A DNA stretch of 64,000 bases, from contig DAOTVC010000106.1 of NCBI GenBank assembly GCA_034437215.1, forward strand, positions 30,369 through 94,368, read 5' to 3'. The stretch's first letter is position 1; each line of letters begins with the position of its first letter. A program made the position numbers and the translations under genes. The DNA is from Anaerolineae bacterium. GTDB taxonomy: Bacteria > Chloroflexota > Anaerolineae > B4-G1 > SLSP01. Below, one piece after another: positions 11,398-45,687 of the stretch. The notes under the pieces are model-generated. The model did no database searches. It was given only the letters and a program-made list of their open reading frames with translations, and had not been told where the DNA came from.

Positions 11398-11460
11398 TTT
11401 TATAACGAAAACGTGTTTAATCACAGACACGTCCTCGCAATTCACGAAGGAGGGTTTTGG

Positions 11461-16945: not shown

Positions 16946-17196
16946 GTCTGGCCGCGTTGTTGGTGGGTTTGGGGTTGGTGGTGCTCTGGGGTGTCTACGT
17001 CACCCGCCCCTTCCGCCGTCCCTCGTTGGATGAGCAGATCGAGGTCTGGGTGGCGGAGGTTGACGTGCAGGCTCGCGCCGTGCCCCAGGAGGAGGCGCCC
17101 ACGGTCAGCGCCTGCCCTGCCTGCGGTCGCCCCCTCCGCGAGGACTACAGCTTCTGCCCCGGCTGTGGTACACCTTTGAGGGAGGAGGCGTCATGA
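16942..17196 (+). CDS. Small membrane protein with a C-terminal zinc ribbon (CPACG...CPGCG)
   Basis: Translationally coupled by ATGA overlap with ccmF upstream and the 17193 gene downstream. One TM helix, then a CxxC...CxxC ribbon. Confidence 0.5.
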   Translation: MSLAALLVGLGLVVLWGVYVTRPFRRPSLDEQIEVWVAEVDVQARAVPQEEAPTVSACPACGRPLREDYSFCPGCGTPLREEAS

Positions 17197-19474: not shown

Positions 19475-19483
19475 GGAATTAGA

Positions 19484-27755: not shown

Positions 27756-27759
27756 TACG

Positions 27760-28341: not shown

Positions 28342-28374
28342 CCGCGACGCGATCATAGGGTTCTGAGTCGTGCC

Positions 28375-31300: not shown

Positions 31301-31860
31301 GGCAGCACGGGCACATCGCCGCTGTGGGCTTTACCCTCTACACCCAACTCCTCTCCGGTACCGTCGCCCGCCTCAGCGCCCAACGGGCCGGCGAGCCGGT
31401 GCCCCCGGCTCCCGTAGGCTCCATCACCATCGAACTGCCGCTGGCGGTAGGGCTGCCCGCTGACTACGTCCCCGACGACCAGCTACGCCTCCGTCTCTAC
31501 CGACGTCTGGCCGAACTCACCGACGCGGAGGAGATTGCCCAGCTGGAGGAGGAGCTCCGGGATCGTTTTGGTCCCCTGCCGGCGACGGCGGAGAACCTCA
31601 TCTACCAGCTGCGCTTGAAGGTTCTGGCACGGGACGCCCACATCCCCACCATCGCCGTCGAGAGCGGACAGATTGCGCTCCGCCCGCCCTGGTTAAAGAA
31701 TGTGCCCCCGGAGCGGATCGGTCGGCTGCGACGGCTGCTGGGAGAGCAAGCACGGCTGGGGCGCCGGGAGATCTGGCTGCCCCTCTCGTGGGAGGAGGAG
31801 CACTGGCGGACCAATCTTCAGGAGGTGCTGGAGGCCCTGGCGGGTTGGTGGGCAGAGTAG
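28375..31860 (+). CDS. mfd: Transcription-repair coupling factor Mfd
   Basis: 1,161 aa. Helicase motifs GDAGYGKTEVALRAAF, DEEQRFGV, QLRGRVGRG. UvrB-homology N-terminus and a CarD-like region. Confidence 0.85.
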   Translation: MDMILSGILPWIREHPAYRDLLHKVQAGRALPPQEVLPAAGSAIVAALLADLDLPLLIVTPTVDESRRLLQALRTWLPAAEEVLAFPAPPVLPYERAPWTPETIGDRLRVLSTLFLHRVGGAGGTPPVVVTSARALLQRPLPYRQFYKAARKIEVGAEESLTALARHCQEIGYESVTVVEVPGQISRRGGILDIFPPHAPVPYRLDFWGDEIDAIRTFEPATQRSVARVSSFWITPVREALPRDGERALAPLQALLATELPPEVRGPLEDDAQSLDVGSPFRSLEFYLPYLYQEVSTLLSYFPTNAQIILYNAAALPLRWRELEEAAEEQRERSVRERLIQPEAPVPYVAWSRWEAALQGERVLSLEYGGAGPLGEAFDPEVHFAGRLGEALGRLRQWVGLGDQVVVVSRQAGRLAELWQQFTPPPVLKELGEPPEGLITFVQGVGPAGWQINEAHRTRHLITDEELFGWRPPEPRRRPRRRVTAPEFPFADLEPGTFVVHEDYGIGLFRGLVQRSIDNIEREYLLVEYSGKDRLFVPIHQADRLTRYVGAEGLGPQLSRLDSQAWEETKARVERATEALAADLLDLYAERQVVEGHAFASDTAWQTELEAAFPYVETQDQIEAIQAVKADMERSQPMDRLICGDAGYGKTEVALRAAFKAVMDNKQVAMLVPTTVLAQQHYLTFQERLDPFPVRVELLSRFRTDAEQRKIIASLTEGQLDIVIGTHRLLQDDVRFGDLGLVIIDEEQRFGVAHKETLKQMRTEVDVLTLTATPIPRTLYMALTGVRDVSIIETPPQERLPLSTYVGPYDADVVQRAIRREMGRNGQTFYVHNRVETIQSVARRLEKLVPEARVGVAHGQMRERDLARVMERFTAGEVDVLVATTIIESGLDFPNANTLIVEHADHFGLAQLYQLRGRVGRGTRRGYAYLFQSRRLQEEGRYRLQALQESTGLGGGFSIALRDLELRGAGELLGARQHGHIAAVGFTLYTQLLSGTVARLSAQRAGEPVPPAPVGSITIELPLAVGLPADYVPDDQLRLRLYRRLAELTDAEEIAQLEEELRDRFGPLPATAENLIYQLRLKVLARDAHIPTIAVESGQIALRPPWLKNVPPERIGRLRRLLGEQARLGRREIWLPLSWEEEHWRTNLQEVLEALAGWWAE

Positions 31861-31894
31861 CGGCTCTTCACGCTGCAAGCGTCTGGTTATGCGA

Positions 31895-31923
31895 TTGTCA
31901 CGCTTTCTTTTCGATAGTACAAT
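31895..31923 (+). promoter_or_regulatory. Sigma70-like promoter: TTGTCA, 17 bp spacer, TACAAT
   Basis: Read directly: ttgtcacgctttcttttcgatagtacaat, about 70 nt upstream of the HK at 31991. Confidence 0.35.
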
Positions 31924-31990
31924 GATCCTCGTGCTACTATATAACTGAACTCTAACAGGGGTTGCCGGACTTGTCTCTCGTTTAAACCTT

Positions 31991-34900
31991 ATGAGAATGG
32001 AGATCCCGGTGGATACACCGCAAATCCTGTTTATCATCGCCTCCTTTGTTATTGGTATCGCGCTCGTCGTCTTTGCCGTATTGGCCTGGCGTCGTCGCCA
32101 CGTTCATAGCAGCGCTCAGTTCATCGCCCTGTTGCTCACGGCAGGTGCCGTTTGGGCCATGGCCTACGCCTTCGAGCTGGTGAGCCCCACGCTTCCCCTG
32201 AAGACCTTCTGGACCAAAGCCACCTACCTGGGTTCGGTCCCCATCACCGTCTCCTGGTTCTTCTTCGCCCTCAACTACAGCGGACGCCGCTCGTGGTTGG
32301 AGAGCAAGTGGATCCGGCTTATCTTCATCGTGCCTGTCATCACCTTGCTCGGGGTCTGGACCTATCCTCTGCAGAAACTCTACTGGACCTACGTCACCCT
32401 CGAGCCGGGTGGGGCGTTGTACTCCGTGGATACCGGGCAGGGGCCCCTCTACTGGGTCCATCACTTCTACTCCTATCTGTTGGTCATGGGCGGGATCTTC
32501 CTGATGGCGCAGACCGCCTTTCAGGTCCGCCGCCACTACCGCATCCAGACGTTGGTCATTCTGGGCGCGGTCATCTTCTTCCTGGTACGGAACATCCTCT
32601 TCCTCCTGGGATTCGAGTCGATCCTGGCGCTGCAGCTCTTCTCCGGTGTGCTGACCTTGGGAACGGTCGTGGCAATCTGGGTGATGTACACCCGTCGCTT
32701 CCCCAACGTCGTACCCGTCGCCCGCTCCACGGTGGTGGAGAGCATGGATGACGCCGTGGTCGTCCTCGACGAGCAGGGGCAGGTCGCGGACTTCAACATC
32801 GCGGCGCGGAAGATCTTGAAGCTTACCGATGAGGATCTTGGGCTTCCGGTCGAAGAGATCTTTGCCGATCATCCGCGGTTGCTCGATGCCTGCCGGAAGG
32901 AGAACGAACAGCGTGAGATTCGGCTGGGTGAGACCGGTGAACAGAGATCTTACGAACTGCGGCTCTATCCCTTCTATGGAAGACAGGATCAACGGGCCGG
33001 GCGTCTGATGGTGCTCGACGACATCACCGCTCAGAAGAGGACGGAGATGGCGCTGCGCCGGCAGCTGGAAGAACTGCAGGTGTTACACGGCGTTGCGATA
33101 GCGGGCGCCCAGACCCGCAACGAAGGTCTGCTCATCGAGCAGGCCACAGCTCTAATCGGCGAGACCCTCTATACCGACAGCTTTGGGGTTCTGCTTGTAG
33201 ATGAAGAGGCGCAGGTTCTTCGCGCGCACCCCTCCTACCGCCAGCGCTCCGGGGCAGAGATCGACCCCGTTCCGCTGGGCGAGGGGATTGCCGGCAGCGT
33301 GGCCGTCGACGGTCGGCCCCGGCGCGTGGGCAACGTTCTGGAGGCGCCGAGCTATATCAGCAGTGACCCCGAGACCCGCTCGGAGCTCTCCGTGCCCCTG
33401 CAGACGGGAGAGCGCATCATCGGGATCGTGAACGTGGAGAGTGTGCACCCCAACGCCTTCACAGAAGCGGACGAGCGGTTGCTGATCACCTTTGCCGGCC
33501 AGCTGGCGACGGCTATCGAGAGAGCGCGCCTCTCGGAGGCCGAGCACGACACTTTGGAGCGCATTCGGGCCCTCTACGAGGTCGCCAGCTCCCTCATCGC
33601 GTCGCCCGAACCCCTGCGCGTTTTGGACACCGCGGTAGAGGATGCAGCGCGCGCCCTGGGAGCCGATCACGTAGTCCTTGCCGTCAACAAGGGGGAGTAC
33701 GACCCTCCAGAGCTACGGTTGGGCGGGCAGGGAGGGATGCTGCCTCCCGCCTCGGAGCGTCTGTGGCACGCGCTTCACCAACGGGTACTCCAGACTCTGA
33801 AGCCGGAGCGGGTGATCCGGGAGCGGGATGATCACGGTACGCCTCTGGGATCCATGATCGTCGTCCCCCTCAGCTACCACGGCGCGATGCGGGGCACTCT
33901 CTCGGCCTTGAAGTACTCCGATGAATCCAGTTTCACGCAGGCGGATCAGAATCTCTTGGAGGCGATGGCCAATCAGATCGCGGTTGCCGTGGAGAACGCG
34001 CACCTCTTCAAGACCTTGGAGTATCGCGTGGCCGAGTTACAGATTCTGCAGCAGACAAGTCTGGAGTTGACGGCTTCGCTGGAGCTCTCCGCCGTGCTCG
34101 AGCGGATTGCCGAGCACGCTCTCAGCCTGGTGAAGGCCTACACCTGCAGCCTTTACCTCTTCGATGCCCAGAGCGGGGAGTTCGATTTCGGTCTCTCCCT
34201 GCGTCAGGACGGGTGGCGGGAGCGCGTGGAGCGCGCGCCCCGCTCCGAGGGGTTGACGATGACGGTGGTCCGACAGGGGGAGCCGCTCATCATCAGTGAC
34301 GTCTTTCACCACTTCCTCTTTGCCTCTCCCGAGGCCCAGGCGCTGGGGCTCCGGGCCATCGCCGGCTTCCCGCTTACACGGGGGGAGCGCGTGCTGGGTG
34401 TGCTGACCGTCTCCTATCTGACCCCGCACACCTTCACGGAGGCCGAACTGCGCATCCTCGGTCTGCTCGCCAGTCAGGCTGCCATCGCCATCGAGAATGC
34501 CCACCTCTTTGAGGAGACGGAGCGCCTGAAGCACTTCAACGAGAACATCGTTCAGGGTGTGGCCGAGGCCATCCTGATCGAGAATGCGGAGGGCCACTTC
34601 GTCTTCGCCAATCCTGCGGGTGAGACTCTTCTCGGTTACGGCGAGGAGGATCTCGTGGGGATGCACTGGAAGGATCTCGTGCCGCCCGGGGAGTATGAGA
34701 AGATAGAGAGAGAGTGGCAGAAGCGGGAGAAGGGTGTCGGCAGTCGCTACGAGACGGTGCTGCTGGACCGCTGGGGCCAGGAGGTACCGGTCATCATCAG
34801 TGCTCGCCCGCTCTTCGAGGGCGACGCTTACGCCGGGGTGCTGGTGGCCCTGATGGATATCACGGAGCGCAAGGCCGTGGAGGAGGAGCGCGAGCGCCTG

Positions 34901-35599
34901 ATCCGGGAGCTGGATGCCTTCGCTCACACCGTCGCCCATGACCTCAAGACCCCGCTCAATGCCCTGCTGGGATCGGCGGAGATCCTGCACGACGAGCACA
35001 GATCGCTCTCTCCCAAGGAGATGAAGATCATCACCGGAGGGGTCGAGCAGAGCGTCTCGAAGATGCTCAGCATCATCGACGAGCTCCTGCTGCTAGCCAG
35101 TGTGCGCAAGCAGCAGGAGGTGCAGCTGCGCCCCCTGGAGATGGGGCACATCGTCGGCGATGCCTTGGAGCGGTTGCACTACGTGATCAAGGAGTCGGAC
35201 GCCCGTATCGAGGTGGCGGAGAGCTGGCCCCAGGTCCGCGGTTACGGCCCCTGGGTGGAGGAGGTCTGGGTCAACTACATCAGCAATGCCATCAAGTATG
35301 GGGGGGAGCCTCCCGAGGTTGAGTTGGGATTTGACGCTCTCGAGAACGACGGGGTGCGTTTCTGGGTCCGTGATAACGGGCAGGGCATTGCTGAGGAGGC
35401 GCAGCACGATCTCTTCACCCCCTTTACCCGCCTGGGACAGGTGCACGCTACAGGTTCGGGGTTGGGCCTCTCCATCGCCAGGCGCATCGTGGAGCGCTTG
35501 GGGGGCGAGGTCGGCTTGGAGAGCGCGCCCGGCGAGGGGAGCCGCTTCTGGTTCACTCTGCCCCCAGCATCTGATGACGAGCCCGGGGAGGAGTCCTAA
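31991..35599 (+). CDS. Large sensor histidine kinase: 7TM sensor, PAS, multiple GAF domains, PAS, HisKA, HATPase_c
   Basis: 1,202 aa. N-terminus paralogous to the other two HKs. H-box AHDLKTPLNAL. HATPase motifs DNGQGI and GSGLGLSI. Confidence 0.8.
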   Translation: MRMEIPVDTPQILFIIASFVIGIALVVFAVLAWRRRHVHSSAQFIALLLTAGAVWAMAYAFELVSPTLPLKTFWTKATYLGSVPITVSWFFFALNYSGRRSWLESKWIRLIFIVPVITLLGVWTYPLQKLYWTYVTLEPGGALYSVDTGQGPLYWVHHFYSYLLVMGGIFLMAQTAFQVRRHYRIQTLVILGAVIFFLVRNILFLLGFESILALQLFSGVLTLGTVVAIWVMYTRRFPNVVPVARSTVVESMDDAVVVLDEQGQVADFNIAARKILKLTDEDLGLPVEEIFADHPRLLDACRKENEQREIRLGETGEQRSYELRLYPFYGRQDQRAGRLMVLDDITAQKRTEMALRRQLEELQVLHGVAIAGAQTRNEGLLIEQATALIGETLYTDSFGVLLVDEEAQVLRAHPSYRQRSGAEIDPVPLGEGIAGSVAVDGRPRRVGNVLEAPSYISSDPETRSELSVPLQTGERIIGIVNVESVHPNAFTEADERLLITFAGQLATAIERARLSEAEHDTLERIRALYEVASSLIASPEPLRVLDTAVEDAARALGADHVVLAVNKGEYDPPELRLGGQGGMLPPASERLWHALHQRVLQTLKPERVIRERDDHGTPLGSMIVVPLSYHGAMRGTLSALKYSDESSFTQADQNLLEAMANQIAVAVENAHLFKTLEYRVAELQILQQTSLELTASLELSAVLERIAEHALSLVKAYTCSLYLFDAQSGEFDFGLSLRQDGWRERVERAPRSEGLTMTVVRQGEPLIISDVFHHFLFASPEAQALGLRAIAGFPLTRGERVLGVLTVSYLTPHTFTEAELRILGLLASQAAIAIENAHLFEETERLKHFNENIVQGVAEAILIENAEGHFVFANPAGETLLGYGEEDLVGMHWKDLVPPGEYEKIEREWQKREKGVGSRYETVLLDRWGQEVPVIISARPLFEGDAYAGVLVALMDITERKAVEEERERLIRELDAFAHTVAHDLKTPLNALLGSAEILHDEHRSLSPKEMKIITGGVEQSVSKMLSIIDELLLLASVRKQQEVQLRPLEMGHIVGDALERLHYVIKESDARIEVAESWPQVRGYGPWVEEVWVNYISNAIKYGGEPPEVELGFDALENDGVRFWVRDNGQGIAEEAQHDLFTPFTRLGQVHATGSGLGLSIARRIVERLGGEVGLESAPGEGSRFWFTLPPASDDEPGEES

Positions 35600-35766
35600 T
35601 CTCGGCTGCACTGAAAAATAGGAGTTTTAGCACACTGTTCTACTACATGTCGACTTCATATTAGCTTCGAGCGCTATATTTAGTGGCACGCTCTGAAACT
35701 CCGATGGTTTCGACCTTCTTTCAGGAGAGCCAATCTTCGGTCGCCGTGTTGCTTGATCTGGTTTAC

Positions 35767-35804
35767 AACCGCGGGGGGCCTCCGTTGGTCCTCCGCGGTT
35801 TTCC
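35767..35804 (+). terminator. Terminator-like hairpin: AACCGCGG, 18-nt loop, CCGCGGTT, then TTCCTG
   Basis: Read directly, about 170 nt after the HK stop in an AT-rich gap. Confidence 0.35.
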
Positions 35805-35875
35805 TGTATGGTAAAGTGAGTGTCTGACCAGGTGACGATTGGACCAACGACTATCAGACTAATTGAGGAGAGAAC

Positions 35876-37135
35876 GTGAGCGAGATTCGACGGTTAACCG
35901 CCCAAGGTATCGAAGAGTACGTCGACATTGTCATCGACGCTTATCCGGGCTTCAAGATCTCCTCGGAGGAGGACCGGCGGCGTCTGATCGAGCGGCTGCA
36001 GAAGGTTCAGGAGGAGGTTCCCCCGCTGCACCTCTACGGTCTCTACCGGGAGGACCGGCTCTTGGGCGGGATGCGTCTGCACGACTTTTGGTTGAACGTG
36101 CTGGGGACGGAGGTCTCGGCCGGAGGGGTGGGTATGGTCGCCGTCGATCTGCTCCACAAGAAGGAGCACGTCGCCAAGGAGCTGCTCCTCTTCTTCCTCG
36201 AGCACTACCGGCGCCGGGGAGCCCGGATGGCGCTCCTCTACCCCTTCCGCCCCGATTTCTACTACGCCATGCACTTCGGCTACGGCGCAAAGATCAGCCA
36301 GTATCGCTTCCGCCCTGCGGCCCTGCGTAGAGGGCCGTCGAAGGCGGAGGTGCGCTCTCTCAGTGCCGAGGATCGGTCCGCTCTGGCTGCCTGCTACGAT
36401 CGCTACCAGGCTCAGACCCATGGGATGATCGTGCGCCACGCCCACGAGTGGGATCCTTGGTTCAGGAACCTGGGTCTGGAGAACCGGATTGCGGGCTGCG
36501 TGCTCGACGACCGGTTGGAGGGCTATCTCATCTTCGGCTTCAAGGCGCGCCCGGTGGAGAGTCCCCTGCGCAACGACCTCGTGGTCAAGGAGCTCGTCTA
36601 TACCAGCCGGGAGGCCCTCGCTGAACTCCTCACCTTCCTGCACTCCCAGGCCGATCAGGTCGAGCGCATCATCTTGGCTACCCATGATGCGTCCTTCCAC
36701 CACCTGCTCCTCGATCCGCGCGACGAGTGTGAGACCCTCATTCCTTCCGTCTACCACGAGAGCAACGTCCAGGGGGTGGGGTTGATGTACCGGATCATCG
36801 ACGTTCCCGGTATCTTCGACGATCTGCGCGACCACGACTTCAACGGGCAGAGCTGTCGCCTGAAGTTGACGGTGAGCGACTCCTTCCTCCCTGGGAACGC
36901 CGGCAGCACGCTCCTGCACTTCGAGGCGGGGCGGGTGACGCTGCCGGGGTCCGGAGAGCACGAGGTCGAGCTGGCGTTGAACGTCGCCGAGCTCTCGTCG
37001 CTCCTCATGGGGGTCGTCGATCTGCGAAGCCTTCACACTTACGGTCTTGCCGAACTCTCGGAGGCAGCCTATCTGGAGACATTGAACCGGCTCTTTGCCG
37101 TGGAGCAGAAGCCGGTCTGCCTCACCGCCTTTTAA
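35876..37135 (+). CDS. Eis-like GNAT N-acetyltransferase: GNAT domain plus an SCP2-like C-terminal domain
   Basis: About 419 aa. GNAT core with GVGMVAV...KKEHVAKELLLFF. Length and architecture match Eis-type acetyltransferases. GTG start with a GAGGAG RBS. Confidence 0.6.
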   Translation: MSEIRRLTAQGIEEYVDIVIDAYPGFKISSEEDRRRLIERLQKVQEEVPPLHLYGLYREDRLLGGMRLHDFWLNVLGTEVSAGGVGMVAVDLLHKKEHVAKELLLFFLEHYRRRGARMALLYPFRPDFYYAMHFGYGAKISQYRFRPAALRRGPSKAEVRSLSAEDRSALAACYDRYQAQTHGMIVRHAHEWDPWFRNLGLENRIAGCVLDDRLEGYLIFGFKARPVESPLRNDLVVKELVYTSREALAELLTFLHSQADQVERIILATHDASFHHLLLDPRDECETLIPSVYHESNVQGVGLMYRIIDVPGIFDDLRDHDFNGQSCRLKLTVSDSFLPGNAGSTLLHFEAGRVTLPGSGEHEVELALNVAELSSLLMGVVDLRSLHTYGLAELSEAAYLETLNRLFAVEQKPVCLTAF

Positions 37136-37156
37136 CCTCACTCAGGAGCGTGCGCT

Positions 37157-38284
37157 ATGCAGAAACTTTCGATTGGCTTCCCTCGCATGCACAAGGAAGC
37201 GGGGGAGGTGCGGGACTTCCTCCCGCGCTTGATGCACCGCCTGGCACCGTTAGCGCGGCAGATCGTTGTCGAGGAGGGCAGCGGTGCGGGGATGGGGATC
37301 CTGCCCGAGAAGTACCTCGGCGCGGGCGACAACGTGCGCTTCGGCACCAACGCCGACTGCTACCATCAGGAGATCGTCGTCCAGGTGCGCTCTCCCGAGG
37401 ATCGCGAGCTGCCCCGGATGCAACCGGGGACGGTGCTCTTCTCCATGCTTCACTACAACACCCATCCGTGGCGGGTGCGCCTGCTCCAGGAGTTGGGGAT
37501 ACGCCCGCTCTCCATGGATAGCATCGTCGACGACGACGGTGTGCGCCTCGTCGAGAACATTCAGGGGACGAGCTGGAATGCCATCTGGGCCGGTTTTCGC
37601 GCGCTGCGCAAGACCTACCCGGACTTCGAGCGACCGGGGCGCCGGCCCATCCGCGTCCTCATCGTAGGGGCCGGCGCGGTCGGGCGCTTCGCCGCCGAGG
37701 CCGCGGCGAAGTACGGCGACGAGCAGCTCGCTCAGGGTCTTCGCGCCCAACACCTCACTCCCGTCATCGCCTCCCTCATCGAGCGGAGTGTCACCGCCAA
37801 TGAGCCGGTGCTGATCGAGGAGCTGGCCCGCGCCGACGTGTTCGTCGACGCTACCTCGCGGCGTGATCCCACCCAGTATATCTTCCGCAACGAGCTCCTC
37901 GGTTACCTCCCGGAGCACGCGGTCGTGGTGGACCTGGCCGCCGATCCCTACATCAACCTCAGCGCTACGGAGCCCCTCCAGGTGAAGGCCATCGAGGGCA
38001 TCCCCACGGGCGATCTGGACGAGTACGAGTTCCCGCGAGATCATCCCGCCTTCAACCGGCTCCCCGACGGCGTGGATACCCGGCAGCGGCGCAGGACGGT
38101 GAGCTGCTACTCCTGGCCCGGGCTCAAGCCCCTGAAGTGTATGAAGCGCTACGGTCGTCAGGTGCAGCCCTTCCTGGAGCTGCTCTTCACGAAGCCCTGG
38201 GATGACTTCTGCCCCCAGGACAGCAACTACTTCGAGCGGGCGCTCTGCCGGGGTAAGTTGCATGGCTCGGTAGAGAGGAGGTAG
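37157..38284 (+). CDS. AlaDH/PNT-like NAD(P)-binding dehydrogenase (alanine dehydrogenase / CEOS / saccharopine dehydrogenase superfamily), paralog 1
   Basis: N-terminal SIGFPRMHKEAGEVRDFLP resembles the AlaDH N-terminal signature. Rossmann motif VLIVGAGAVGRFAAEAA. A paralog sits at 41203..42381. Confidence 0.45.
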   Translation: MQKLSIGFPRMHKEAGEVRDFLPRLMHRLAPLARQIVVEEGSGAGMGILPEKYLGAGDNVRFGTNADCYHQEIVVQVRSPEDRELPRMQPGTVLFSMLHYNTHPWRVRLLQELGIRPLSMDSIVDDDGVRLVENIQGTSWNAIWAGFRALRKTYPDFERPGRRPIRVLIVGAGAVGRFAAEAAAKYGDEQLAQGLRAQHLTPVIASLIERSVTANEPVLIEELARADVFVDATSRRDPTQYIFRNELLGYLPEHAVVVDLAADPYINLSATEPLQVKAIEGIPTGDLDEYEFPRDHPAFNRLPDGVDTRQRRRTVSCYSWPGLKPLKCMKRYGRQVQPFLELLFTKPWDDFCPQDSNYFERALCRGKLHGSVERR

Positions 38285-38287
38285 GAC

Positions 38288-38851
38288 GTGAGGTCCTCAA
38301 CGGATCCTACGAACGGAACCGCTTTTCTCGTCGGCGAACGCATCTACCTCCGCCCTCTCGAGAGGGCGGATCTGGCTCACATCCGCCGGTGGTCCAACGA
38401 CCCCGAGATCCGGCGCCTGACGGGCGAGGTGCATCCCATGACGGAGGGGGACGCGGAGGCCTTCTATGAGAAGGTGCAGCAGGAGGAGAGCCGCGTCTGG
38501 TTCATCATTGCCCTTCAGGAGGACGACCGGCCCGTCGGCGAGTGCGGGCTGCTGCGCCTCTTCCCCGCCTGGCGCACCACCGATCTCAGCATCATCCTCG
38601 GGGAGAGGGACGCGTGGGGCCGGGGATACGGGACCGAGGCCATCCGGCTGCTCCTCGACTACGCTTTCGGAGCGCTCAACCTCCACCGGGTCGCCATCGG
38701 CGTGGTCGGCTTCAACGAGCGCGCCCTCCGCTTCTACGAGAAGGTGGGCTTCCGGAGGGAGGGCGTGCAGCGCGACGGCTACTTCTACGACCACGCCTAC
38801 CACGACTTCGTGATGATGAGCATCCTCGAGGCGGAGTTTCGACGACCGTAG
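38288..38851 (+). CDS. GNAT family N-acetyltransferase (RimJ/RimL-like)
   Basis: YLRPLERADLAHIRRWSNDPEI... GNAT core with RGYGTEA and a C-terminal YEKVGFRREG, the pattern of Acetyltransf_3-type GNATs. Confidence 0.7.
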   Translation: MRSSTDPTNGTAFLVGERIYLRPLERADLAHIRRWSNDPEIRRLTGEVHPMTEGDAEAFYEKVQQEESRVWFIIALQEDDRPVGECGLLRLFPAWRTTDLSIILGERDAWGRGYGTEAIRLLLDYAFGALNLHRVAIGVVGFNERALRFYEKVGFRREGVQRDGYFYDHAYHDFVMMSILEAEFRRP

Positions 38852-38864
38852 AGCTCTGCTCTTC

Positions 38865-39854
38865 CTACGCCTCCGCGCGCCTCTGCACCCGCAGCGCCAG
38901 GAAGGTGAGCCACGGCGAGGGCTGCTTCTTGTCGGCAAAGGACCAGCCTTTCCAGGCCCGGAACATGGAGCCGGCGGTGTAGCGCCCCTCTTCGTCGCCC
39001 TGCTCGGTGAGGGTGGCGAGCAGCTCCCCGAAGCGCGGGTCGTCGCGGGCGAAGGGGAAGCGACTGAGCACACCGGTCACGTGGAGGAGGTCGTACCAGA
39101 CGAAGGGGTACTTGAGCCTGCGGAAGTGGGTGCCCATGGCGAAGAGGTAGATCTTGCGCTCCTTCTGGTGCTCCCAGTGATCCAGCAGCATCTCGACCCC
39201 CGCACGTGTCGCCGGGCCGTCCACGAACTGCGGCACCAGAGCCAGTGCTTTGAGGGCGTAGACGTTGACGATGGGACAGGGATCCTCGCGCCGTCCGGGT
39301 CCGTGGAACTTGCCGAAGACCGGGGCGGCTTCACAGCGCCAGCCATTCTCCTTCACCTGGGCGGCCAGATGCTCCACCGCTCGTTGCACCCGCGCATCCT
39401 CGCCTAAACCGTAGGCCAGCAGGGCGTAGAGGAGGGTGGGGGTGTCGCAGAGCATCCAGCCCCAGGTGTCCTCACCGCTGCCCCCGAAGGCCTTGGGGAT
39501 GTTGATCAGGGACTCGAAGGGGCCCTCGGGCGCTTGGTGGGCCAGCACCGCTGCGATAGGGGCTGCCATCTCGGGATCGGAGGCGCGCAATCCGAAGTCC
39601 GCCAGCGTGCTGAGGGCGTAGATAGGGTGGGCGGCATCGTTGTGGCGCTTGAAGACGTAGCCGGGCCAGCTCGCCGCCTGCTCGATGAGTGCTTGCACCC
39701 GGGGGTGCGCGATCATCTCTCGGCGCGCGGCGGCTACCTCCGGAGCCTCCTCCGGCACATCGAGGAGATCCACCAGGGTGCGGTAGCGGGTCCAGGGTTC
39801 ATCGGAGTTCAGAAGCCAGTCGAGGGTCGTGTCGTTCTTCAGCTTATCAGTCAT
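38865..39854 (-). CDS. Trp-rich uncharacterized protein, probably operonic with the WYL regulator
   Basis: 329 aa with no clear catalytic motif. Begins 10 nt downstream of the WYL gene stop on the same strand. Confidence 0.45.
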   Translation of the reverse strand: MTDKLKNDTTLDWLLNSDEPWTRYRTLVDLLDVPEEAPEVAAARREMIAHPRVQALIEQAASWPGYVFKRHNDAAHPIYALSTLADFGLRASDPEMAAPIAAVLAHQAPEGPFESLINIPKAFGGSGEDTWGWMLCDTPTLLYALLAYGLGEDARVQRAVEHLAAQVKENGWRCEAAPVFGKFHGPGRREDPCPIVNVYALKALALVPQFVDGPATRAGVEMLLDHWEHQKERKIYLFAMGTHFRRLKYPFVWYDLLHVTGVLSRFPFARDDPRFGELLATLTEQGDEEGRYTAGSMFRAWKGWSFADKKQPSPWLTFLALRVQRRAEA

Positions 39855-39863
39855 GAGTCTCTC

Positions 39864-40829
39864 CTAGAGTGATGATTTGGTGTGCTCCTCGAGGAGCGCC
39901 TGCGCCCGCTCCCGTACGGCTCGGTACAGCTCCGGCGGCTCGAGAACTACGGCGTGCGAGGCGTAGCTCAGCGCGGTGCGTATTGCCAACTCCAGTTCCG
40001 GGACTTTGAAGGAGACGATGACGGCACCGTCTGGCTGTTCCTCCAGGCGCTCCCAGAGGCCCCGCTCATCGAGCGCCACGAGCGCCGACTCCGGGTGAAA
40101 GCGTAGTCGTACCTCGAACTGCGGTCGCGTGTGGGGCTCGTCCTCGAGGTAGGCGTGGACATCGAAGTCGGCGGGTTGATGGAAGCAGGTGTCGAGGAGG
40201 GTGAGCGCCTCCATGCGATCCACGCGGAAGGTGCGCACGTCCTGGCGCAGATGGCAGTAGGCCACGACGTACCACCAGCCCCAGCGGTGGACGAGGACGT
40301 AGGGATCGACCACGCGCTGCAGGGGATCGCGGCGTCCTCGGGAGCGGTAGGTCACCTCCACGCTGCGGTGCTCACGGGTGGCGCGGCGCAGCGTCTCCAG
40401 GCGCGGGATGAGGGGGGCGTTGGCGGCGCGGTGCATGTTCGTCGCCACGAAGGTGCGCCGGGCCCAGCTGACCTCGTGGCACTGCTCGTCAGGGAGCAGG
40501 TTCTCCAGCTTCGCCAGCGCGCCCCTTGCCGCCTCCCGGTAGAGCTCGCCCCAGAGGGCCTCCACCAGCCCCGTTCCCAGGGTCACCGCCACGGCCTCCT
40601 CCGGCGTCAAAACCAGCGGCGGCATTCGGTAGCCCCGCACGAGAGAGAAGCCGCCGTGAGGTCCGCGTTCCGAGTAGACGGGGATGCCCAACTCGTCCAG
40701 CATGCCGATGTAGCGGTGGACGGTGCGTACAGAGACGTCGAGCGCTTCGGCCAGCGCCGCCGCCTTCTGGTTGGGGCGGCGCTGCAGGAGCATGATCAGC
40801 GAGATGAGACGGACCGCCGTGTTGGTCAT
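39864..40829 (-). CDS. WYL-domain transcriptional regulator: wHTH, WYL, WCX-like C-terminus (PafBC/BrxR/CapW architecture)
   Basis: N-terminal HTH AAALAEALDVSVRTVHRYIGMLDELGIPV. WYL core YVLVHRWGWWYVVAYCHLRQDVRTFRVDRM. Confidence 0.75.
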   Translation of the reverse strand: MTNTAVRLISLIMLLQRRPNQKAAALAEALDVSVRTVHRYIGMLDELGIPVYSERGPHGGFSLVRGYRMPPLVLTPEEAVAVTLGTGLVEALWGELYREAARGALAKLENLLPDEQCHEVSWARRTFVATNMHRAANAPLIPRLETLRRATREHRSVEVTYRSRGRRDPLQRVVDPYVLVHRWGWWYVVAYCHLRQDVRTFRVDRMEALTLLDTCFHQPADFDVHAYLEDEPHTRPQFEVRLRFHPESALVALDERGLWERLEEQPDGAVIVSFKVPELELAIRTALSYASHAVVLEPPELYRAVRERAQALLEEHTKSSL

Positions 40830-41002
40830 GGTCTGTTTTCTCCTTCTCCCCGCAGGGCACTGTCCCCACTGTAGTCGAGGTTCATGTCAATGTATGTCAT
40901 AATTATACTCTGTTGTGGTGGATAAAGGGAACTGGAGAGACTTTTTTCACTCTATGATGTGTAGCGCTGAGGGGGTTGCCGCGGCTCAGGGGTTCTCTCA
41001 AG

Positions 41003-41043
41003 TGTGAAAATTGGGGGCGGCATAGCCGCCCCCAATTTTCACA
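41003..41043. promoter_or_regulatory. Perfect 18-bp-arm hairpin TGTGAAAATTGGGGGCGG catag CCGCCCCCAATTTTCACA
   Basis: Read directly, in the divergent region between the WYL regulator and dehydrogenase paralog 2. The arm contains GTGAAAA, reminiscent of the REP core. Confidence 0.4.
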
Positions 41044-41051
41044 AAAAACTT

Positions 41052-41087
41052 AGCCGTCTTCCGGTGCTGGGACACCGGAAGACGGCT
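41052..41087. promoter_or_regulatory. Perfect 15-bp-arm hairpin AGCCGTCTTCCGGTG ctggga CACCGGAAGACGGCT
   Basis: Read directly, 8 nt after the first hairpin. No T-run follows. Confidence 0.4.
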
Positions 41088-41202
41088 TCACCATTGCTCG
41101 AGGATAGAGAAAGAAGCGGGGCCTTCGCCTTTCACCTGCTCGCACTCGAAGTGTGATAGAATGGGGGAAGACAATCGCTCTCACCCTCAGGAGGTGTTTA
41201 TG

Positions 41203-42381
41203 AATTCACTCTCGGTCGGTTTTCCCCGCATGCACAAGGAGCCCGGTGAGGTACGGGACTTCCTGCCCCGCCTGATCCACCGGCTGTCGCCGCTGGCCCG
41301 CGAGGTCGTGGTGGAGGAGGGAAGCGGTGCGGGGGTGGGGATCGACCCTCAGAAGTACGTCCGCGGCTGCGACAACGTGCACTTCGGCACCCATCAGGAG
41401 TGCTACGATCAGGATATCGTCGTCCAGGTGCGCTCCCCCGAGGACGAGGAGTTGGAGCGCATGAAGCCCGGCACCATCCTCTTCGCCATGCTGCACTACC
41501 CTACCCATCCGAGCCGCGTGCGCCGGATGCACGACCTGGGGCTCCTGCCCATCTCCATGGACAGTGTGGTGGACGAGGACGGGACGCGCCTCATCGAGAA
41601 CATTCGCGGTACCAGCTGGAACGCCGTCTGGGCCGGTTTTCGCGCCCTCCGCAAGACCTATCCGGCTCTGGAATCCCCGGAGCGCGAACCCCTCAGGGCA
41701 GTCGTGATGGGCACCGGGCCCGTCGGTCGCTACGCAGCGGAGTCCGCGACCAAGTACGGCGACGTGGCCCTGCACCTCGATCTGCTGGCGCACGACGTGC
41801 CTGGCGTCGTCGTGAACCTGATCGGACGCAACGTGACCCGGCACCAGCGCCACTTGCGGGCGTTGCTGGAGAGGGCCGACGTCTTCGTGGATGCCACCTT
41901 CCGCGCCGACCCTACGCGCTTCATCGTGCCCAACGCGCTGGTGGGCGCTCTGCCGCAGCACGCCGTCGTCGTGGACGCCACTGCCGATCCCTACATCACC
42001 GATACCGACCCCATCCAGGTGAAGGCCATCGAGGGTATCCCCACCGGTGATCTCGACGACTACGAGTTCTCTCCCGACCACCCCGCCTTCGATCGGCTGC
42101 CCCCTGCCGTGAGCACGGAGAACCGGCGCCTGACCGTCAGCTGCTACTCCTGGCCCGGTCTCAAGCCCGTGGAGTGCATGCGGCGCTACGGACGGCAGCT
42201 CTACCCCTTTCTCCAGATCCTGCTGCGCCGCCCCTTTGAGACCTTGGTGGACAGCCAAAGCTACTTCGAGGCGGCCCTCTATCGCGGAACCCTCAACCAC
42301 TATCTCGAGGAGGAGCAGCGGGGCTTTTACCATCGCGCCGCCGCCACAGGGGCGATCTTCAGAGAAGGGGAGGGGTCCTGA
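41203..42381 (+). CDS. AlaDH/PNT-like NAD(P)-binding dehydrogenase, paralog 2
   Basis: About 60% amino-acid identity with 37157..38284, and long identical nucleotide runs (for example atcgtcgtccaggtgcgctc). AGGAGG RBS before the MNSLSVGFPRMHKE start. Confidence 0.45.
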   Translation, partial: NSLSVGFPRMHKEPGEVRDFLPRLIHRLSPLAREVVVEEGSGAGVGIDPQKYVRGCDNVHFGTHQECYDQDIVVQVRSPEDEELERMKPGTILFAMLHYPTHPSRVRRMHDLGLLPISMDSVVDEDGTRLIENIRGTSWNAVWAGFRALRKTYPALESPEREPLRAVVMGTGPVGRYAAESATKYGDVALHLDLLAHDVPGVVVNLIGRNVTRHQRHLRALLERADVFVDATFRADPTRFIVPNALVGALPQHAVVVDATADPYITDTDPIQVKAIEGIPTGDLDDYEFSPDHPAFDRLPPAVSTENRRLTVSCYSWPGLKPVECMRRYGRQLYPFLQILLRRPFETLVDSQSYFEAALYRGTLNHYLEEEQRGFYHRAAATGAIFREGEGS

Positions 42382-42531
42382 CGAAGAGCTCTCCCCTGCA
42401 GTTGGCATCCTCGCTCTTCTCTGCTACAATGTCGCTTGCGACGGTTTTTGCTCGACTCTCTTTACCGACAAGGGAGAAGTGGTGCGGGCCGGTAGGCGGC
42501 CCCTTGAAATCTCCGTCCGGAAGGCAATAGC

Positions 42532-45500
42532 GTGCCCTGGCAGTTCAATCCCTATAGCCTCTTCTTGATTGTGACGGCTGCCCTGGCTGCGGGCCTGGTG
42601 GTGGCCTGTTGGCGCCGCCGACCTCTGCCCGGCGCCGCGGCCTTCAGCGTGGTCATGCTGGCCCTGCTCGTCTGGTCCCTTGCCTACGGGATGGCTCTCG
42701 CTCACTCCACTCCTGAGGTGAAGGAGCGCCTCATCCGCCTACAGTACCTGGGCGTCGTTACGGCTCCGATCGCCTGGTTCCTCTTCGCGTTGGGATATAC
42801 CCGGCAGGATCTGTGGCTCTCCCCGCGTATCTACATCCTGCTGGCCGTGGAGCCCCTCCTCTTCCTCCTGTTGTTGGCGACGAACGACAGCCACGCCTTG
42901 GTCTACGAGGGGGTGATTCTCACCGACATGGGCAGCTTTTCCACGCTGCAGTGGGACGAAGTAGGCTGGGCCTTCTGGATGCACTCTGTGTACTCCTACG
43001 GTCTGTTGACCGTGACCAGCTACCTTATCATCCGGGCCTTCATTCTTTCGCCAGGGCTCTACCAGGGGCAGATCCTGCTGCTCATCGTCGCTGCCTTCGC
43101 TCCCTGGATCGGAAACGCTCTCTACCTCTTTGGCGTCAGCCCCTACGTCGATCCTACCTCCTTCGCCTTCCTCCTGACGGGTATCCTGGTGACCCTGGCT
43201 CTCTACCGCTTCCGTCTGCTGGATATCGTCCCGGTGGCCCGCCATGCGGTGATGGAAGATCTGAGCGACGGGATCATCGTGCTCGATAGTCGCAACCGCG
43301 TCGTGGACCTCAATCCGGCGGCGGAGGAGATGATCGGGGTGAGCGCCGGCGAGGCCATCGGGCAGCGGGGGATGCACGTGCTGGCTGCCTGGCCCCAGTT
43401 GGTGGACAAGTACCGGGAGCGAAAGCATGCGCACGACGAGATCCTCGTGGAGCGCCAGGGGGAGGTGCGGGCCTACGATCTGCGCATCTCTCCCCTGCGT
43501 CGTGGAGGAGGTCGGATCGAGGGGCGTCTCGTCGGGCTGCGCGACATCACCGAGCGCAAGCTGGCGGAGGAGGCCCTGCGGACCCGGGAGCACTTCCTGG
43601 CCTCCCTCAGTGAGATCACCGAAGCTGCTCTCGAGACACCTGATCTGCAGACCATGGTCCAGACCTTGGCGGACCGCCTGGGCGAGCTCTTCGGCGCCGA
43701 TGGCTGCTATTTGGTGCTCTGGGATGAGGAGAGGCGCCAACCCCGGCCCGCCGCAGCCTTGGATATCCCTCAGGAGGTCTACCGGACGAGGACGATGGAG
43801 ATCGGAGAGGTGGCGTTGATTTCTAAGACGCTGGCGGAGGAGCGTCCCCTCGTCATCGAGGACACCACCCGGATCTCTTATCTCGTGGAACGGGAGACCC
43901 CCCTTTTCCCCGGTCACTCTCTGCTGGGACTGCCCTTGATCGCTGACGGGCGTAAGCTGGGCGCCGCTATCATTGCCTTTGAGCGCCCCCGTTCTTTCAA
44001 GGCCGAGGAGGTAGCGCAGGCGGGGCAGGTCTCCCGGCACCTCGCCCTGGCCCTGGCGAAGGTCAAGATGCTGGATTCCGAGCGCTTCGCCCGGGAGCGG
44101 ACGGAGGCCCTCTACCAGTTCACGAGCTCCCTGCTCACCCACGAGGATCTGACGCAGGCCCTGCAGACGGTGGCGCGCGAGATGGCCGAGCTGCTTCTGG
44201 CGGATCGGGTCCTCATCGTCACCCTCGATCTGGAGGGGCGGCGGATTCTGAAAGCGGTGCTGGAGGGCAGGGGAGCCACGCCCCTCGTCCCCTTCTCCTT
44301 CGAGGAGTTGGAGGAGGGGTTGGTGGGCTGGGTGCTCCGGGAGCGGGAGGCGACCCTCTCGCCGAAGGGACGACCGGATGCTCGGGAGAGTGCCGCTGTG
44401 CGGCGGCGGAGGGCCGAGTTCAAGTTGGGGGCGCTGATGGTCGCGCCCCTGCGTTACCGCGGACGGAGCCTGGGGGCCGTCGTCGCCATAAATAGGCTGC
44501 AGGACCCCGACTTCACCGAGCACGATCTGGCACTGCTCGCCGCCGTCAGCAACCAGGCTGCCGTCGTTATCGACGATATACGGCTCTACGAGGAGACGGC
44601 CCGGCTCAAGGTCTTCAACGAGAACATCCTCCAGAGCGTGGGGGAGATTATCCTGCTGGAGGACGAGAACGGGCGTTTCACCTTCGTCAATCCTGCTATT
44701 GAGGAGGTGCTGGGCTACGTGCCCGAGTCCCTGCTGGGCCAGAGTTGGGAGCTCCTCCTCCCCAAGCGGGAGTGGGCGCGTGTTCGAGAGGAGTCCAGGC
44801 GGCGGGAGCAGGGGCTGGCGGGCCGTTACGAAACCCTGGCTTGCGCCAGCGACGGGCGCGAGGTGCCCCTGATCGTCAGCGCTCGTCCGCTCTTCCAGGA
44901 GGGGCGCTTTGCCGGCACCATCTCCGCCGTCACCGACATCACCGAGCGCAAGCGGGTGGAGGAGGAGCGCGAACAGTTGATCGAGGACCTGGACGCCTTC
45001 GCCCACACCGTGGCTCACGACCTCAAGACCCCTCTCACGCTCATCGTCGGCGCGGCCCGTCTTCTGCAGAAGAACATCGACCTCGAGAACCGGACCCTCC
45101 ACTATCTGACCGACTCCGTCGTCCGCGGGGGCAACAAGATGAGCAACATCATCGACGAGCTCCTCTTGCTCTCGAGCGTGCGGGAAAAGGCGGATATCAC
45201 CTTCGAGACCTTGCAGATGGACGCCATCGTCGCCGAGAGCCTGGATCGCCTGCAGGGGCTCATCGAGGAGCGCGGCGCTCAGATTCAGCTGCCGGAGAGC
45301 TGGCCTGTGGCGCGTGGATACGGCCCCTGGGTAGAGGAGATCTGGGCCAACTACATCAGCAACGCCATCAAATATGGAGGGGATCCGCCCGTGGTGGAAC
45401 TGGGGGGCTCTCTCTGCAACGGGGAGGGAGCGGCAGGCGCCCGCTCTTACGCACGCTTCTGGGTGCGGGACAATGGGAAGGGGATCAGCGAGGAGGAACG

Positions 45501-45687
45501 CCAACGGCTCTTCACCCCCTTTACTCGTCTGGGACAGGTGAACGTCAGCGGGCACGGTCTGGGCCTCTCCATCGTTCAACGCATCGTCCAGCGCCTCAAC
45601 GGACAGGTCGAAGTCCGCAGCGAGCCCGGTGTGGGGGCGGAGTTCAGTTTCATCCTTCCCGCAGACGAGGCGGTACTCTCGCGGTAG
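42532..45687 (+). CDS. Sensor histidine kinase: 7TM sensor, PAS, GAF, GAF, PAS, HisKA, HATPase_c
   Basis: 1,051 aa. GTG start. H-box AHDLKTPLTLI. HATPase motifs DNGKGI and GHGLGLSI. The C-terminal third closely parallels the HK at 31991. Confidence 0.8.
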   Translation: MPWQFNPYSLFLIVTAALAAGLVVACWRRRPLPGAAAFSVVMLALLVWSLAYGMALAHSTPEVKERLIRLQYLGVVTAPIAWFLFALGYTRQDLWLSPRIYILLAVEPLLFLLLLATNDSHALVYEGVILTDMGSFSTLQWDEVGWAFWMHSVYSYGLLTVTSYLIIRAFILSPGLYQGQILLLIVAAFAPWIGNALYLFGVSPYVDPTSFAFLLTGILVTLALYRFRLLDIVPVARHAVMEDLSDGIIVLDSRNRVVDLNPAAEEMIGVSAGEAIGQRGMHVLAAWPQLVDKYRERKHAHDEILVERQGEVRAYDLRISPLRRGGGRIEGRLVGLRDITERKLAEEALRTREHFLASLSEITEAALETPDLQTMVQTLADRLGELFGADGCYLVLWDEERRQPRPAAALDIPQEVYRTRTMEIGEVALISKTLAEERPLVIEDTTRISYLVERETPLFPGHSLLGLPLIADGRKLGAAIIAFERPRSFKAEEVAQAGQVSRHLALALAKVKMLDSERFARERTEALYQFTSSLLTHEDLTQALQTVAREMAELLLADRVLIVTLDLEGRRILKAVLEGRGATPLVPFSFEELEEGLVGWVLREREATLSPKGRPDARESAAVRRRRAEFKLGALMVAPLRYRGRSLGAVVAINRLQDPDFTEHDLALLAAVSNQAAVVIDDIRLYEETARLKVFNENILQSVGEIILLEDENGRFTFVNPAIEEVLGYVPESLLGQSWELLLPKREWARVREESRRREQGLAGRYETLACASDGREVPLIVSARPLFQEGRFAGTISAVTDITERKRVEEEREQLIEDLDAFAHTVAHDLKTPLTLIVGAARLLQKNIDLENRTLHYLTDSVVRGGNKMSNIIDELLLLSSVREKADITFETLQMDAIVAESLDRLQGLIEERGAQIQLPESWPVARGYGPWVEEIWANYISNAIKYGGDPPVVELGGSLCNGEGAAGARSYARFWVRDNGKGISEEERQRLFTPFTRLGQVNVSGHGLGLSIVQRIVQRLNGQVEVRSEPGVGAEFSFILPADEAVLSR

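Follow-up and report, generated by a model that had tools for sequence, protein, structure and literature searches.

A probable two-module mosaic of a tandem dehydrogenase pair and a WYL regulator/toroid operon in an Anaerolineae genome

The interval studied here lies in a stretch of 64,000 nucleotides of an Anaerolineae bacterium (GenBank assembly GCA_034437215.1, contig DAOTVC010000106.1, positions 30,369 to 94,368 of the forward strand), and this whole 64-kb stretch is called the window. The interval was found to contain two divergent dehydrogenase genes of the AlaDH/PNT superfamily (AlaDH, alanine dehydrogenase), named DH-A and DH-B. They are separated by a RimL/SpeG-type GNAT gene and, on the opposite strand, by the genes of an HTH-WYL-WCX regulator and of a 329-amino-acid (aa) protein with a predicted α/α-toroid fold, which is called the toroid protein. 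Gene content, conservation, linkage, promoter architecture and fold were established in silico. In our study, we found that the interval is very probably a mosaic of two independent modules, the dehydrogenase pair and the WYL/toroid operon. The whole package, in which this mosaic is combined with a role of the WYL operon in genotoxic stress and with a heteromeric assembly of the two dehydrogenases, is rather likely.

Genes and features of the interval

The coordinates of the genes and other features are given in Table 1. All the open reading frames claimed in the initial annotation of the window were present at these positions, and the domain identities proposed there (an Eis-like GNAT, two dehydrogenases, a RimL-like GNAT and a WYL regulator) were upheld by Pfam and NCBIfam. 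Both of the perfect hairpins that it listed were also found. The start of DH-B had been placed at 41161; it is most likely the ATG at 41200, which has GGAGG 6 nt upstream and aligns with the start of DH-A. The Eis-like GNAT scored 43.9 bits with the NCBIfam Eis equivalog (NF002368), for which the cut-off is 576, and the protein appears to be Eis-like in architecture only.

Table 1. Features of the interval, with window coordinates
Feature	Coordinates	Strand	Evidence and remarks
HK1, 7TM-GAF-PAS histidine kinase	31991..35599	+	Pfam HisKA_7TM, GAF, PAS, HisKA, HATPase_c; upstream of the dehydrogenase module
Eis-like three-domain GNAT acetyltransferase	35876..37135	+	Pfam Acetyltransf_9, Acetyltransf_17, SCP2_2; ends 21 nt before DH-A
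DH-A, divergent AlaDH/PNT-superfamily protein, first of the tandem pair	37157..38284	+	Pfam AlaDh_PNT_N, AlaDh_PNT_C
RimL/SpeG-type GNAT	38288..38851	+	Pfam Acetyltransf_3, NCBIfam match; starts 3 nt past the DH-A stop
Toroid protein (329 aa, "unknown"), second gene of the WYL operon	38865..39854	-	AlphaFold2 (AF2) fold, Foldseek
HTH-WYL-WCX regulator, PafBC/DriD/SiwR type, first gene of the operon	39864..40829	-	Pfam HTH_11, WYL, WCX
Predicted composite promoter of the WYL operon	40868..40900	-	palindrome ATGACATACATTGACAT at 40884-40900, 10-nt spacer, -10-like hexamer TACAGT at 40868-40873
Hairpin 1, perfect 19-bp stem, 3-nt loop	41003..41043	none	GC-rich core, then AATTTT on both strands
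Hairpin 2, perfect 15-16-bp stem	41052..41087	-	followed by AAGTTTTTTG on the minus strand; terminator scan
DH-B, second dehydrogenase of the pair	41200..42381	+	Pfam AlaDh_PNT_N, AlaDh_PNT_C; GGAGG ribosome-binding site
HK2, 7TM-GAF-PAS histidine kinase, downstream of DH-B	42532..45687	+	Pfam; paralogue of HK1

The dehydrogenase pair and the inserted segment

DH-A and DH-B were found to be diverged from each other, with 64% identity at the protein level and about 71% at the DNA level overall (75-77% in the best blocks). The longest identical nucleotide run between them was 22 nt. These values contradict the claim of a recent duplication with long identical nucleotide runs. The duplication had also been described as a segmental one, of a dehydrogenase together with a GNAT gene; the two GNATs belong to different families, and therefore neither was duplicated with a dehydrogenase. 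Each copy was nearer to its positional orthologue in another Anaerolineae genome (locus L086; 74-75%) than to its partner in the window. The closest relative of DH-A was the first gene of the L086 pair (74%), and DH-B was most similar to the gene in second place in L086 (75%) and in the pair of locus L087 (70%). The gene order in L086 was histidine kinase, Eis-like GNAT, dehydrogenase, dehydrogenase, with 120 bp between the dehydrogenases and no insertion, and in L087 a large sensor kinase was followed by the two dehydrogenases. In a tblastn-based count over 52 metagenome loci where adjacency could be judged, the two dehydrogenases were in tandem on the same strand in 45, divergent or convergent in 3, and present as a single gene in 4. 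In a neighbour-joining tree with 42 distant pairs, the first genes and the second genes formed two reciprocally monophyletic clades (42/42 each). The adjacency, the two clades and the closer positional orthologues indicate that DH-A and DH-B are an old pair with a fixed A-then-B order, normally adjacent and co-directional.

The scores of DH-A and DH-B with the alaDH equivalog TIGR00518 were 46.6 and 49.0 bits, respectively, against a cut-off of 391.85, and both were far under the pntA equivalog cut-off of NCBIfam as well. The AF2 model of DH-A (predicted TM-score, pTM, 0.85) contained a two-domain Rossmann fold that matched AlaDH and PntA domain I at only 19-20% identity, and the top Foldseek matches were 2VHX and 1X13 (E about 1e-17, TM-score 0.63-0.71). 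The active site of AlaDH contains Arg15, Lys75, His96 and Asp270 in the numbering of Mycobacterium tuberculosis. A profile alignment to 2VOE/2EEZ placed the invariant R19, H99 and D263 of the window family at the Arg, His and Asp positions, and the catalytic Lys75 position was occupied by an invariant Arg (R78). The GxG of the NAD motif (GxGxxG) was invariant in the family alignment, and the C-terminal third contained an invariant motif of its own, CYSWPG. DH-A and DH-B are members of the AlaDH/PNT superfamily and not ordinary alanine dehydrogenases. The pair is widespread and, carried in public annotations as "alanine dehydrogenase", is currently mis-annotated.

Conserved adjacency together with the A/B phylogeny is the usual signature of two subunits, and on this ground we slightly favour the view that DH-A and DH-B are subunits of one heteromeric enzyme. 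It would be an NAD(P)-dependent dehydrogenase with a substrate of the amino-acid or 2-oxo-acid type. The heteromer is thus proposed from adjacency and A/B phylogeny. In the clade to which the window belongs, A copies were 57-64% identical to B copies, compared with a median of 47% for other pairs, and gene conversion or a separate duplication may have taken place within this clade. A conserved partner gene that would reveal the substrate was also sought and dropped, as no other gene recurred beside the pair in about 80 loci. The Eis-like GNAT preceded the pair only in the close Anaerolineae relatives L084 and L086. In this clade, the pair lies downstream of a 7TM-GAF-PAS sensor kinase and the Eis-like GNAT. 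A homologous kinase was also observed ahead of the Eis-like and dehydrogenase genes in both L084 and L086 (order kinase, Eis-like GNAT, dehydrogenase). The two kinases of the window shared 51% identity in the last 400 aa at the C-terminus and about 29% in the sensor part, and the dehydrogenase pair may sit in a sensor-kinase neighbourhood in this clade.

The locus of a close relative (L084) was collinear with the window from 27060 to 40908, at 82-89% DNA identity. Its junctions were as in the window, with the histidine kinase, the Eis-like gene and DH-A followed by the toroid and WYL genes on the opposite strand. The RimL-type GNAT was mostly lost in L084, where 370 bp of unrelated GC-rich sequence was found instead and about the last 97 nt of the gene were left. 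Because only this 3' stub remains, the GNAT was present in the common ancestor and is dispensable; it was not found in L086 and L087 and is specific to this lineage. The replacement sequence (L084:11107-11476) was rich in short palindromes, such as CCCCTTCCCCC...GGGGGAAGGGG, and may be a small repeat element. L086 shows an uninterrupted dehydrogenase pair, and the history is explained most simply by an insertion of about 2.9 kb (38285-41199) that parted DH-A from DH-B in this Anaerolineales lineage. The insertion would date to an ancestor that this genome shares with the nearest relative sequenced, and the inserted cargo would consist of the dispensable RimL-type GNAT and the two-gene WYL/toroid operon.

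No dehydrogenase or Eis-like GNAT was found within 10 kb of the toroid gene in 80 species-level genome loci (0/80), and no WYL or toroid gene was found at about 80 independent dehydrogenase loci. Outside the window, the dehydrogenases and the WYL/toroid genes occurred together only in L084.

The two hairpins lie between the WYL promoter and DH-B, about 100-190 nt upstream of that promoter (hairpin 2 at about 150 nt). Hairpin 2, with its T-run, fitted the intrinsic-terminator consensus on the minus strand in the terminator scan. Neither hairpin was repeated elsewhere in the window, and a search of 40700-41300 against Rfam gave no credible family (best match AniS, E 0.13, far under the gathering score). 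The gap between the adjacent dehydrogenase genes of L086 was found to lack a hairpin, and the hairpins would therefore belong to the inserted segment or have arisen after the insertion. Hairpin 1 could act as a terminator or insulator, whereas hairpin 2 would block minus-strand read-in to the WYL promoter. Together they would keep the transcription of the inserted operon apart from that of DH-B, which fits two separate transcription units.

Two other readings of the interval were weighed against the mosaic. In the initial annotation, the dehydrogenase/GNAT module was described as wrapped around the WYL operon, so that the dehydrogenases, the GNATs, the WYL regulator and the 329-aa protein would form one functional system. 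It would serve either in defence or, under the control of the WYL protein, as a pathway to small molecules such as N-acyl or opine-like amino acids. The physical adjacency of all these genes in the window and in L084, and the start of the RimL-like GNAT only 3 nt after DH-A, speak for such a system. However, the two modules never co-occurred at the toroid-centred loci or at the roughly 80 dehydrogenase loci, and a single system loses its basis because of this. Moreover, the dehydrogenases are directly adjacent to each other in L086, in L087 and in most of the decidable metagenome loci, the RimL-like GNAT is lost in L084, the sole WYL operator in the 64 kb is the WYL promoter itself, and two strong hairpins stand between this promoter and DH-B. 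With no co-occurrence, the one-system reading is largely refuted, and we consider it extremely improbable. It is also improbable, though less so, that DH-A and DH-B are ordinary alanine dehydrogenase isozymes that act independently and are neighbours by chance. Their relatives do carry that name in public annotations, and the pair resembles AlaDH and PntA domain I in the two-domain Rossmann fold, the GxGxxG motif and the equivalents of Arg15, His96 and Asp270. It differs from them in the low identity to solved AlaDHs, the invariant Arg in place of Lys75, the CYSWPG motif, the low equivalog scores and the fixed A/B tandem, in which the order and the reciprocally monophyletic clades are kept across 42 distant loci. 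A false lead is thereby removed, as the interval is explained neither by a dehydrogenase/GNAT/WYL system nor by a recent duplication.

The WYL operon, its promoter and the toroid family

The gap between the stop codon of the WYL gene and the start of the toroid gene was 9 nt, with an AGGAGAG ribosome-binding site that overlaps the stop. This agrees with the co-transcription proposed before, and the two genes probably form one operon. The regulator was found to contain, in order, HTH_11 (3.8e-12), WYL (2.6e-24) and WCX (8.5e-16) domains of Pfam. Among solved proteins, it was closest to PafBC (3.5e-21), followed by PafC (1.9e-12, over residues 4-317, nearly the full length) and PafB (4e-11), whereas the defence-associated WYL repressors CapW and BrxR gave 5e-7 and 2.5e-4, respectively. 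More than 2500 orthologues of the regulator were found, and a 100%-identical protein (P0241) is annotated in an Anaerolineales metagenome-assembled genome. In one orthologue (P0308, 67% identical), the C-terminus was fused to a GyrI-like/Cass2 small-molecule-binding domain.

The regulator and the toroid gene were also linked in other genomes. A WYL orthologue (57-67% identical) was present upstream on the same strand in 9 of the 36 toroid loci with at least 8 kb of upstream flank, and it was directly adjacent to the toroid gene in only 3 of 69 loci. Conversely, four of five WYL-centred loci, which were chosen only for their long contigs, contained a co-directional toroid orthologue (66-70% identical) 1-8 kb downstream. 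These counts and the promoter enrichment described below show that the link holds in many further genomes.

A predicted composite promoter with the consensus ATGNCR-N5-TGNCAT-N10-TAnnnT was found upstream of the WYL orthologues, that is, a 17-bp palindrome followed by TAnnnT after exactly 10 nt. Fifteen WYL orthologues had this architecture in their upstream regions, and the ATG-C, TG-C and TA-A-T columns of the alignment were invariant. Of 18 palindromes, 15 were followed by TAnnnT at exactly +10, where the background frequency is 0.6% per position. Over 79 toroid-centred genome loci, the composite promoter occurred 16 times upstream of the toroid gene on the same strand and once in total in three control compartments (same strand downstream, opposite strand upstream and opposite strand downstream). 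The element of the window lies 39 nt before the WYL start codon on the minus strand and is the only copy in the 64 kb. The rest of the window was free of WYL boxes, and none preceded the GyrI-like open reading frame at 46569-47078. This last gene, on the minus strand 4 kb beyond DH-B, encodes a GyrI-like/Cass2 effector-binding protein of a family that is a frequent cargo of WYL arrays elsewhere.

From the promoter and its distribution, the regulator probably controls the toroid gene through the palindrome. The presence of a single regulator gene and of a palindrome points to a DriD-like homodimer, and by analogy with the characterised members the regulator is somewhat more likely to be an activator than a repressor. 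The consensus could serve for mapping the regulon across hundreds of uncultured Anaerolineae genomes. Nearly invariant TGNC bases were also observed 2-3 nt past the -10 in WYL orthologues with long leaders (about 40849-40867 on the minus strand of the window; L009, L027, L169-L173). The 5' untranslated region of the WYL gene contained a small hairpin of the type CTGTCC-N3-GGACGG, which was TCCCC-tgc-GGGGA in L084 and only about 3 bp in the window; the changes in this hairpin look compensatory. The TGNC bases or the leader hairpin could represent a second operator or a leader structure.

The toroid protein had been described as a Trp-rich protein of no recognisable family. It does contain 11 Trp among its 329 residues (3.3%), and no match was obtained in Pfam, NCBIfam or PADLOC, but a recognisable α/α-toroid fold was predicted. 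The AF2 model was all-helical (pTM 0.85, mean pLDDT 81). The best Foldseek matches in the PDB were squalene-hopene cyclase, MstE, drimenyl diphosphate synthase, AprG and the β subunits of the FTase/GGTase prenyltransferases. The comparison of the model of 38865..39854 by Foldseek, which the initial annotation had proposed, returned these as weak matches, with TM-scores of 0.35-0.49 and a best E of 5.6e-4. Searches of the family by sequence and profile against PDB sequences gave only spurious matches to designed helical repeats. A tandem paralogue, 35% identical to the toroid protein, matched Pfam SQHop_cyclase_C above the cut-off (1.7e-8), and the link of the window protein to this family is transitive only. 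Structure prediction and this transitive similarity suggest that the window protein folds as an α/α toroid and belongs to the terpene-cyclase/prenyltransferase-like superfamily.

At least 2053 homologues were found at E ≤ 0.001 in the protein search, typically at about 70% identity and almost all from Chloroflexota/Anaerolineae, and 477 of the 600 pattern matches listed from species-representative genomes encode a toroid relative. In many loci, one to three distant paralogues (24-36% identity) were present in tandem with the orthologue, and the paralogues contained QW-like motifs of the Q-x3-G-x-W type. Up to three tandem paralogues were observed behind a single WYL box (L065:71-4079, L170, L172, L173), and several toroid subfamilies with 24-49% identity to one another coexisted in one array. 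Three Cys were invariant in the toroid protein, C136 and C193 were conserved across the paralogues, and D191-P-C193 and H226 were invariant among the orthologues. Class II cyclases carry a catalytic DxDD motif, and prenyltransferase β subunits an Asp/Cys/His zinc site. No DxDD was seen on reading the sequence, although no formal motif scan was made. The family resembles class II terpene cyclases and prenyltransferase β subunits in the predicted α/α toroid, the QW-type motifs of the paralogues and the SQHop_cyclase_C match of one of them. It differs from them in that the window protein is a single toroid domain of about 330 aa without a Pfam match, in the two superfamily-conserved Cys, and in a context of stress arrays rather than isoprenoid biosynthesis. 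A phage association of the family was considered and dropped, since a single distant match was found among 2.9 million viral contigs of IMG/VR. This family of about 330 aa, with more than 2000 members and no Pfam model, is now given a fold and a regulatory context.

Stress arrays, known WYL regulators and other readings of the operon

In other Anaerolineae, the same regulator and promoter were found to head variable co-directional arrays, in which the toroid protein was the commonest cargo. Several arrays contained DNA-repair proteins: full-length UvrA with UvrB-interaction and DNA-binding domains (L033, L052, L054, L170), AlkZ-like proteins (L172, L173), DNA_alkylation/AlkD-like HEAT proteins (L170, L173) and a UDG-family glycosylase (L173). 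The UvrA-like gene of L054 (5095-8455) was located directly behind a composite WYL promoter and contained a low-complexity insert of about 110 aa. The remaining cargo included DUF1706 proteins, which are ClbS/DinB-like (L064, L173), glyoxalase/bleomycin-resistance-like proteins (L169, L170), GyrI-like proteins, a radical-SAM protein, GNATs including the GNAT-YoaP type, DUF3795, AAT, α/β hydrolases and toroid paralogues. Genotoxin self-resistance is a known role of ClbS, of AlkZ and the AlkD-like glycosylases, and of GyrI-like hydrolases. These families are discussed in the antibiotic self-resistance reviews PMC9854587 and PMC8626424. Some arrays were observed beside defence-like genes, namely in L001 at 2141-5851 and 14624-19474 (DarT/Macro, HEPN/NTase, TIR-FGE-sulfatase, SLFN/AlbA), in L169 at 1-5416 (DUF499/DUF1156) and in L171 at 3020-9149 (nSTAND-WD40 with CHAT-SIR2). 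With such neighbours, the WYL/toroid arrays lie in variable genomic regions.

Judged by the array cargo, the balance tilts a little towards a genotoxic-stress regulon driven by this regulator and promoter. Since the toroid protein is the commonest cargo of the arrays, it is most likely induced under stress and acts by binding or modifying a small molecule. The 17-bp palindrome takes the place of a -35 element, exactly 10 nt upstream of the TAnnnT -10. In the proposed mechanism, which is modelled on DriD, PafBC and SiwR, genotoxic stress would yield single-stranded DNA (ssDNA), or some related molecule, as the ligand of the WYL domain. The ligand-bound regulator would then bind the palindrome and recruit RNA polymerase to the -35-less promoter, and both the regulator itself and the toroid protein would be expressed more strongly. 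Several observations weigh against parts of this reading. The operon of the window carries the toroid gene only, without a recognisable DNA-repair gene, and the genotoxin theme comes from orthologous loci; the five WYL-centred loci are a small sample. The GyrI-like fusion of P0308 hints at a small-molecule signal rather than ssDNA. A palindrome at the -35 region would suit a repressor no less than an activator, and the TGNC just downstream of the -10 could be an autorepression half-site. Parts of the toroid model are of low confidence, and only weak structural matches to it were obtained.

Among the characterised WYL regulators, DriD of Caulobacter crescentus is a homodimeric activator of an SOS-independent DNA damage response. 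Promoters controlled by DriD are without a -35 element; its binding site overlaps the place of this element and keeps a constant distance to the -10 (PMC13004042). The window regulator resembles DriD in the HTH-WYL-WCX architecture, in a palindromic operator over the missing -35 at a fixed distance from the -10, and in the DNA-damage functions of the regulon, which were seen here in orthologous loci. It differs in operator sequence and in phylum (Chloroflexota), and the dispersed promoters of DriD contrast with the variable co-directional arrays beside the regulator, in which the regulon is largely organised here. The window regulator is also set apart from DriD by its position behind its own box, so that it would be autoregulated. 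PafBC and SiwR, the sigma-adaptation regulators of Actinobacteria, act at the -26 region (PMC10693628). By sequence, the nearest solved relatives of the window regulator are PafBC and PafC, and the binding site likewise lies just upstream of the -10 without a -35. For SiwR, ssDNA binding and the control of adjacent DinB/YfiT-superfamily genes under genotoxic stress are described (PMC10693628), and DUF1706/DinB-like genes are similarly present in the arrays. PafBC is a heterodimer with a non-palindromic site (PMC6789036), in contrast to the single gene and palindrome found here, and no α/α-toroid family is reported in the PafBC/SiwR regulons, whereas toroids dominate the cargo of these arrays. 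The regulator appears to be a member of the PafBC/DriD/SiwR kind, with its own operator consensus and with neighbouring variable arrays as its regulon.

WYL DNA-damage activators are documented in Actinobacteria, Caulobacter and Moraxellaceae, and no description of them for Chloroflexota was found in the literature searched. The result is useful and testable and, with WYL damage regulators known in several phyla, not very surprising. A context is now available for two uncharacterised families, the toroid proteins and the A/B dehydrogenases. Only tentatively do we extend the proposal to Anaerolineae, and perhaps to Chloroflexota more widely. These bacteria may possess a WYL-driven DNA-damage/genotoxin response with an ssDNA-sensing regulator and the promoter ATGNCR-N5-TGNCAT-N10-TAnnnT as its signature, in which the commonest effectors would be Cys-containing single-domain α/α toroids of a family not recognised before that neutralise genotoxic small molecules or lesions, and the A/B AlaDH-like tandem may be a new heteromeric dehydrogenase.

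Two other functions of the WYL operon have to be set beside the genotoxic-stress reading. The regulon could be a general xenobiotic or antibiotic response to a small-molecule ligand rather than to ssDNA or DNA damage, with the toroid, GyrI-like, GNAT, DUF3795 and glyoxalase-like proteins sequestering or modifying toxins. The cargo is indeed rich in families that bind or modify small molecules (GyrI-like, GNAT, Ble-like glyoxalase, α/β hydrolase, AAT and the terpene-cyclase-like toroid), and the fusion of P0308 to an effector-binding domain suits this view. It is nevertheless unlikely, because the arrays repeatedly contain genuine DNA-repair proteins (full-length UvrA with its UvrB-interaction domain, AlkZ-like, AlkD-like and UDG proteins), in some cases encoded right behind the operator. 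The characterised PafBC-like WYL activators are moreover all described as sensing ssDNA (PMC11804915, PMC10853764 and PMC10693628). The initial annotation placed the regulator in a PafBC/BrxR/CapW type with a stress or anti-phage role; the stress side of that statement is slightly favoured, with PafBC the closest relative and DNA-repair and genotoxin cargo in the orthologous arrays, whereas the anti-phage side is not favoured. As a BrxR/CapW-type repressor, the WYL protein would release the toroid on infection as an anti-phage or abortive-infection effector. BrxR and CapW use a palindromic operator over the promoter. The window regulator shares with them this inverted repeat at its own promoter, the domain architecture and the position directly upstream of the controlled gene, the PADLOC models for WYL match it, and some of the variable regions that hold the arrays contain defence-like genes (L001, L169, L171). 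On the other side, the similarity to PafBC/PafC is much stronger than that to CapW and BrxR. A PADLOC search of six window genes gave nothing beyond the WYL protein, the toroid included, and the neighbours are dehydrogenases, GNATs and histidine kinases. The co-directional cargo elsewhere consists of DNA repair and detoxification genes, not of known defence effectors. The toroid family is nearly absent from the viral contigs, with its one distant match, and is conserved at about 70% identity in hundreds of species, unlike fast-evolving defence genes. An anti-phage function is hence still less probable than a xenobiotic response, and the genotoxic-stress reading is preferred to both.

Two minor observations concern other parts of the window. 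The gap between DH-B and HK2 contained a good σ70-like promoter match at 42402-42430 (TTGGCA, 17 nt, TACAAT, with TG before the -10), and a short terminator-like hairpin was present right after it (42402-42443 region). The G+C content was about 71% at 14001-20000 and 59% at 10001-12000, and about 64% elsewhere in the window.

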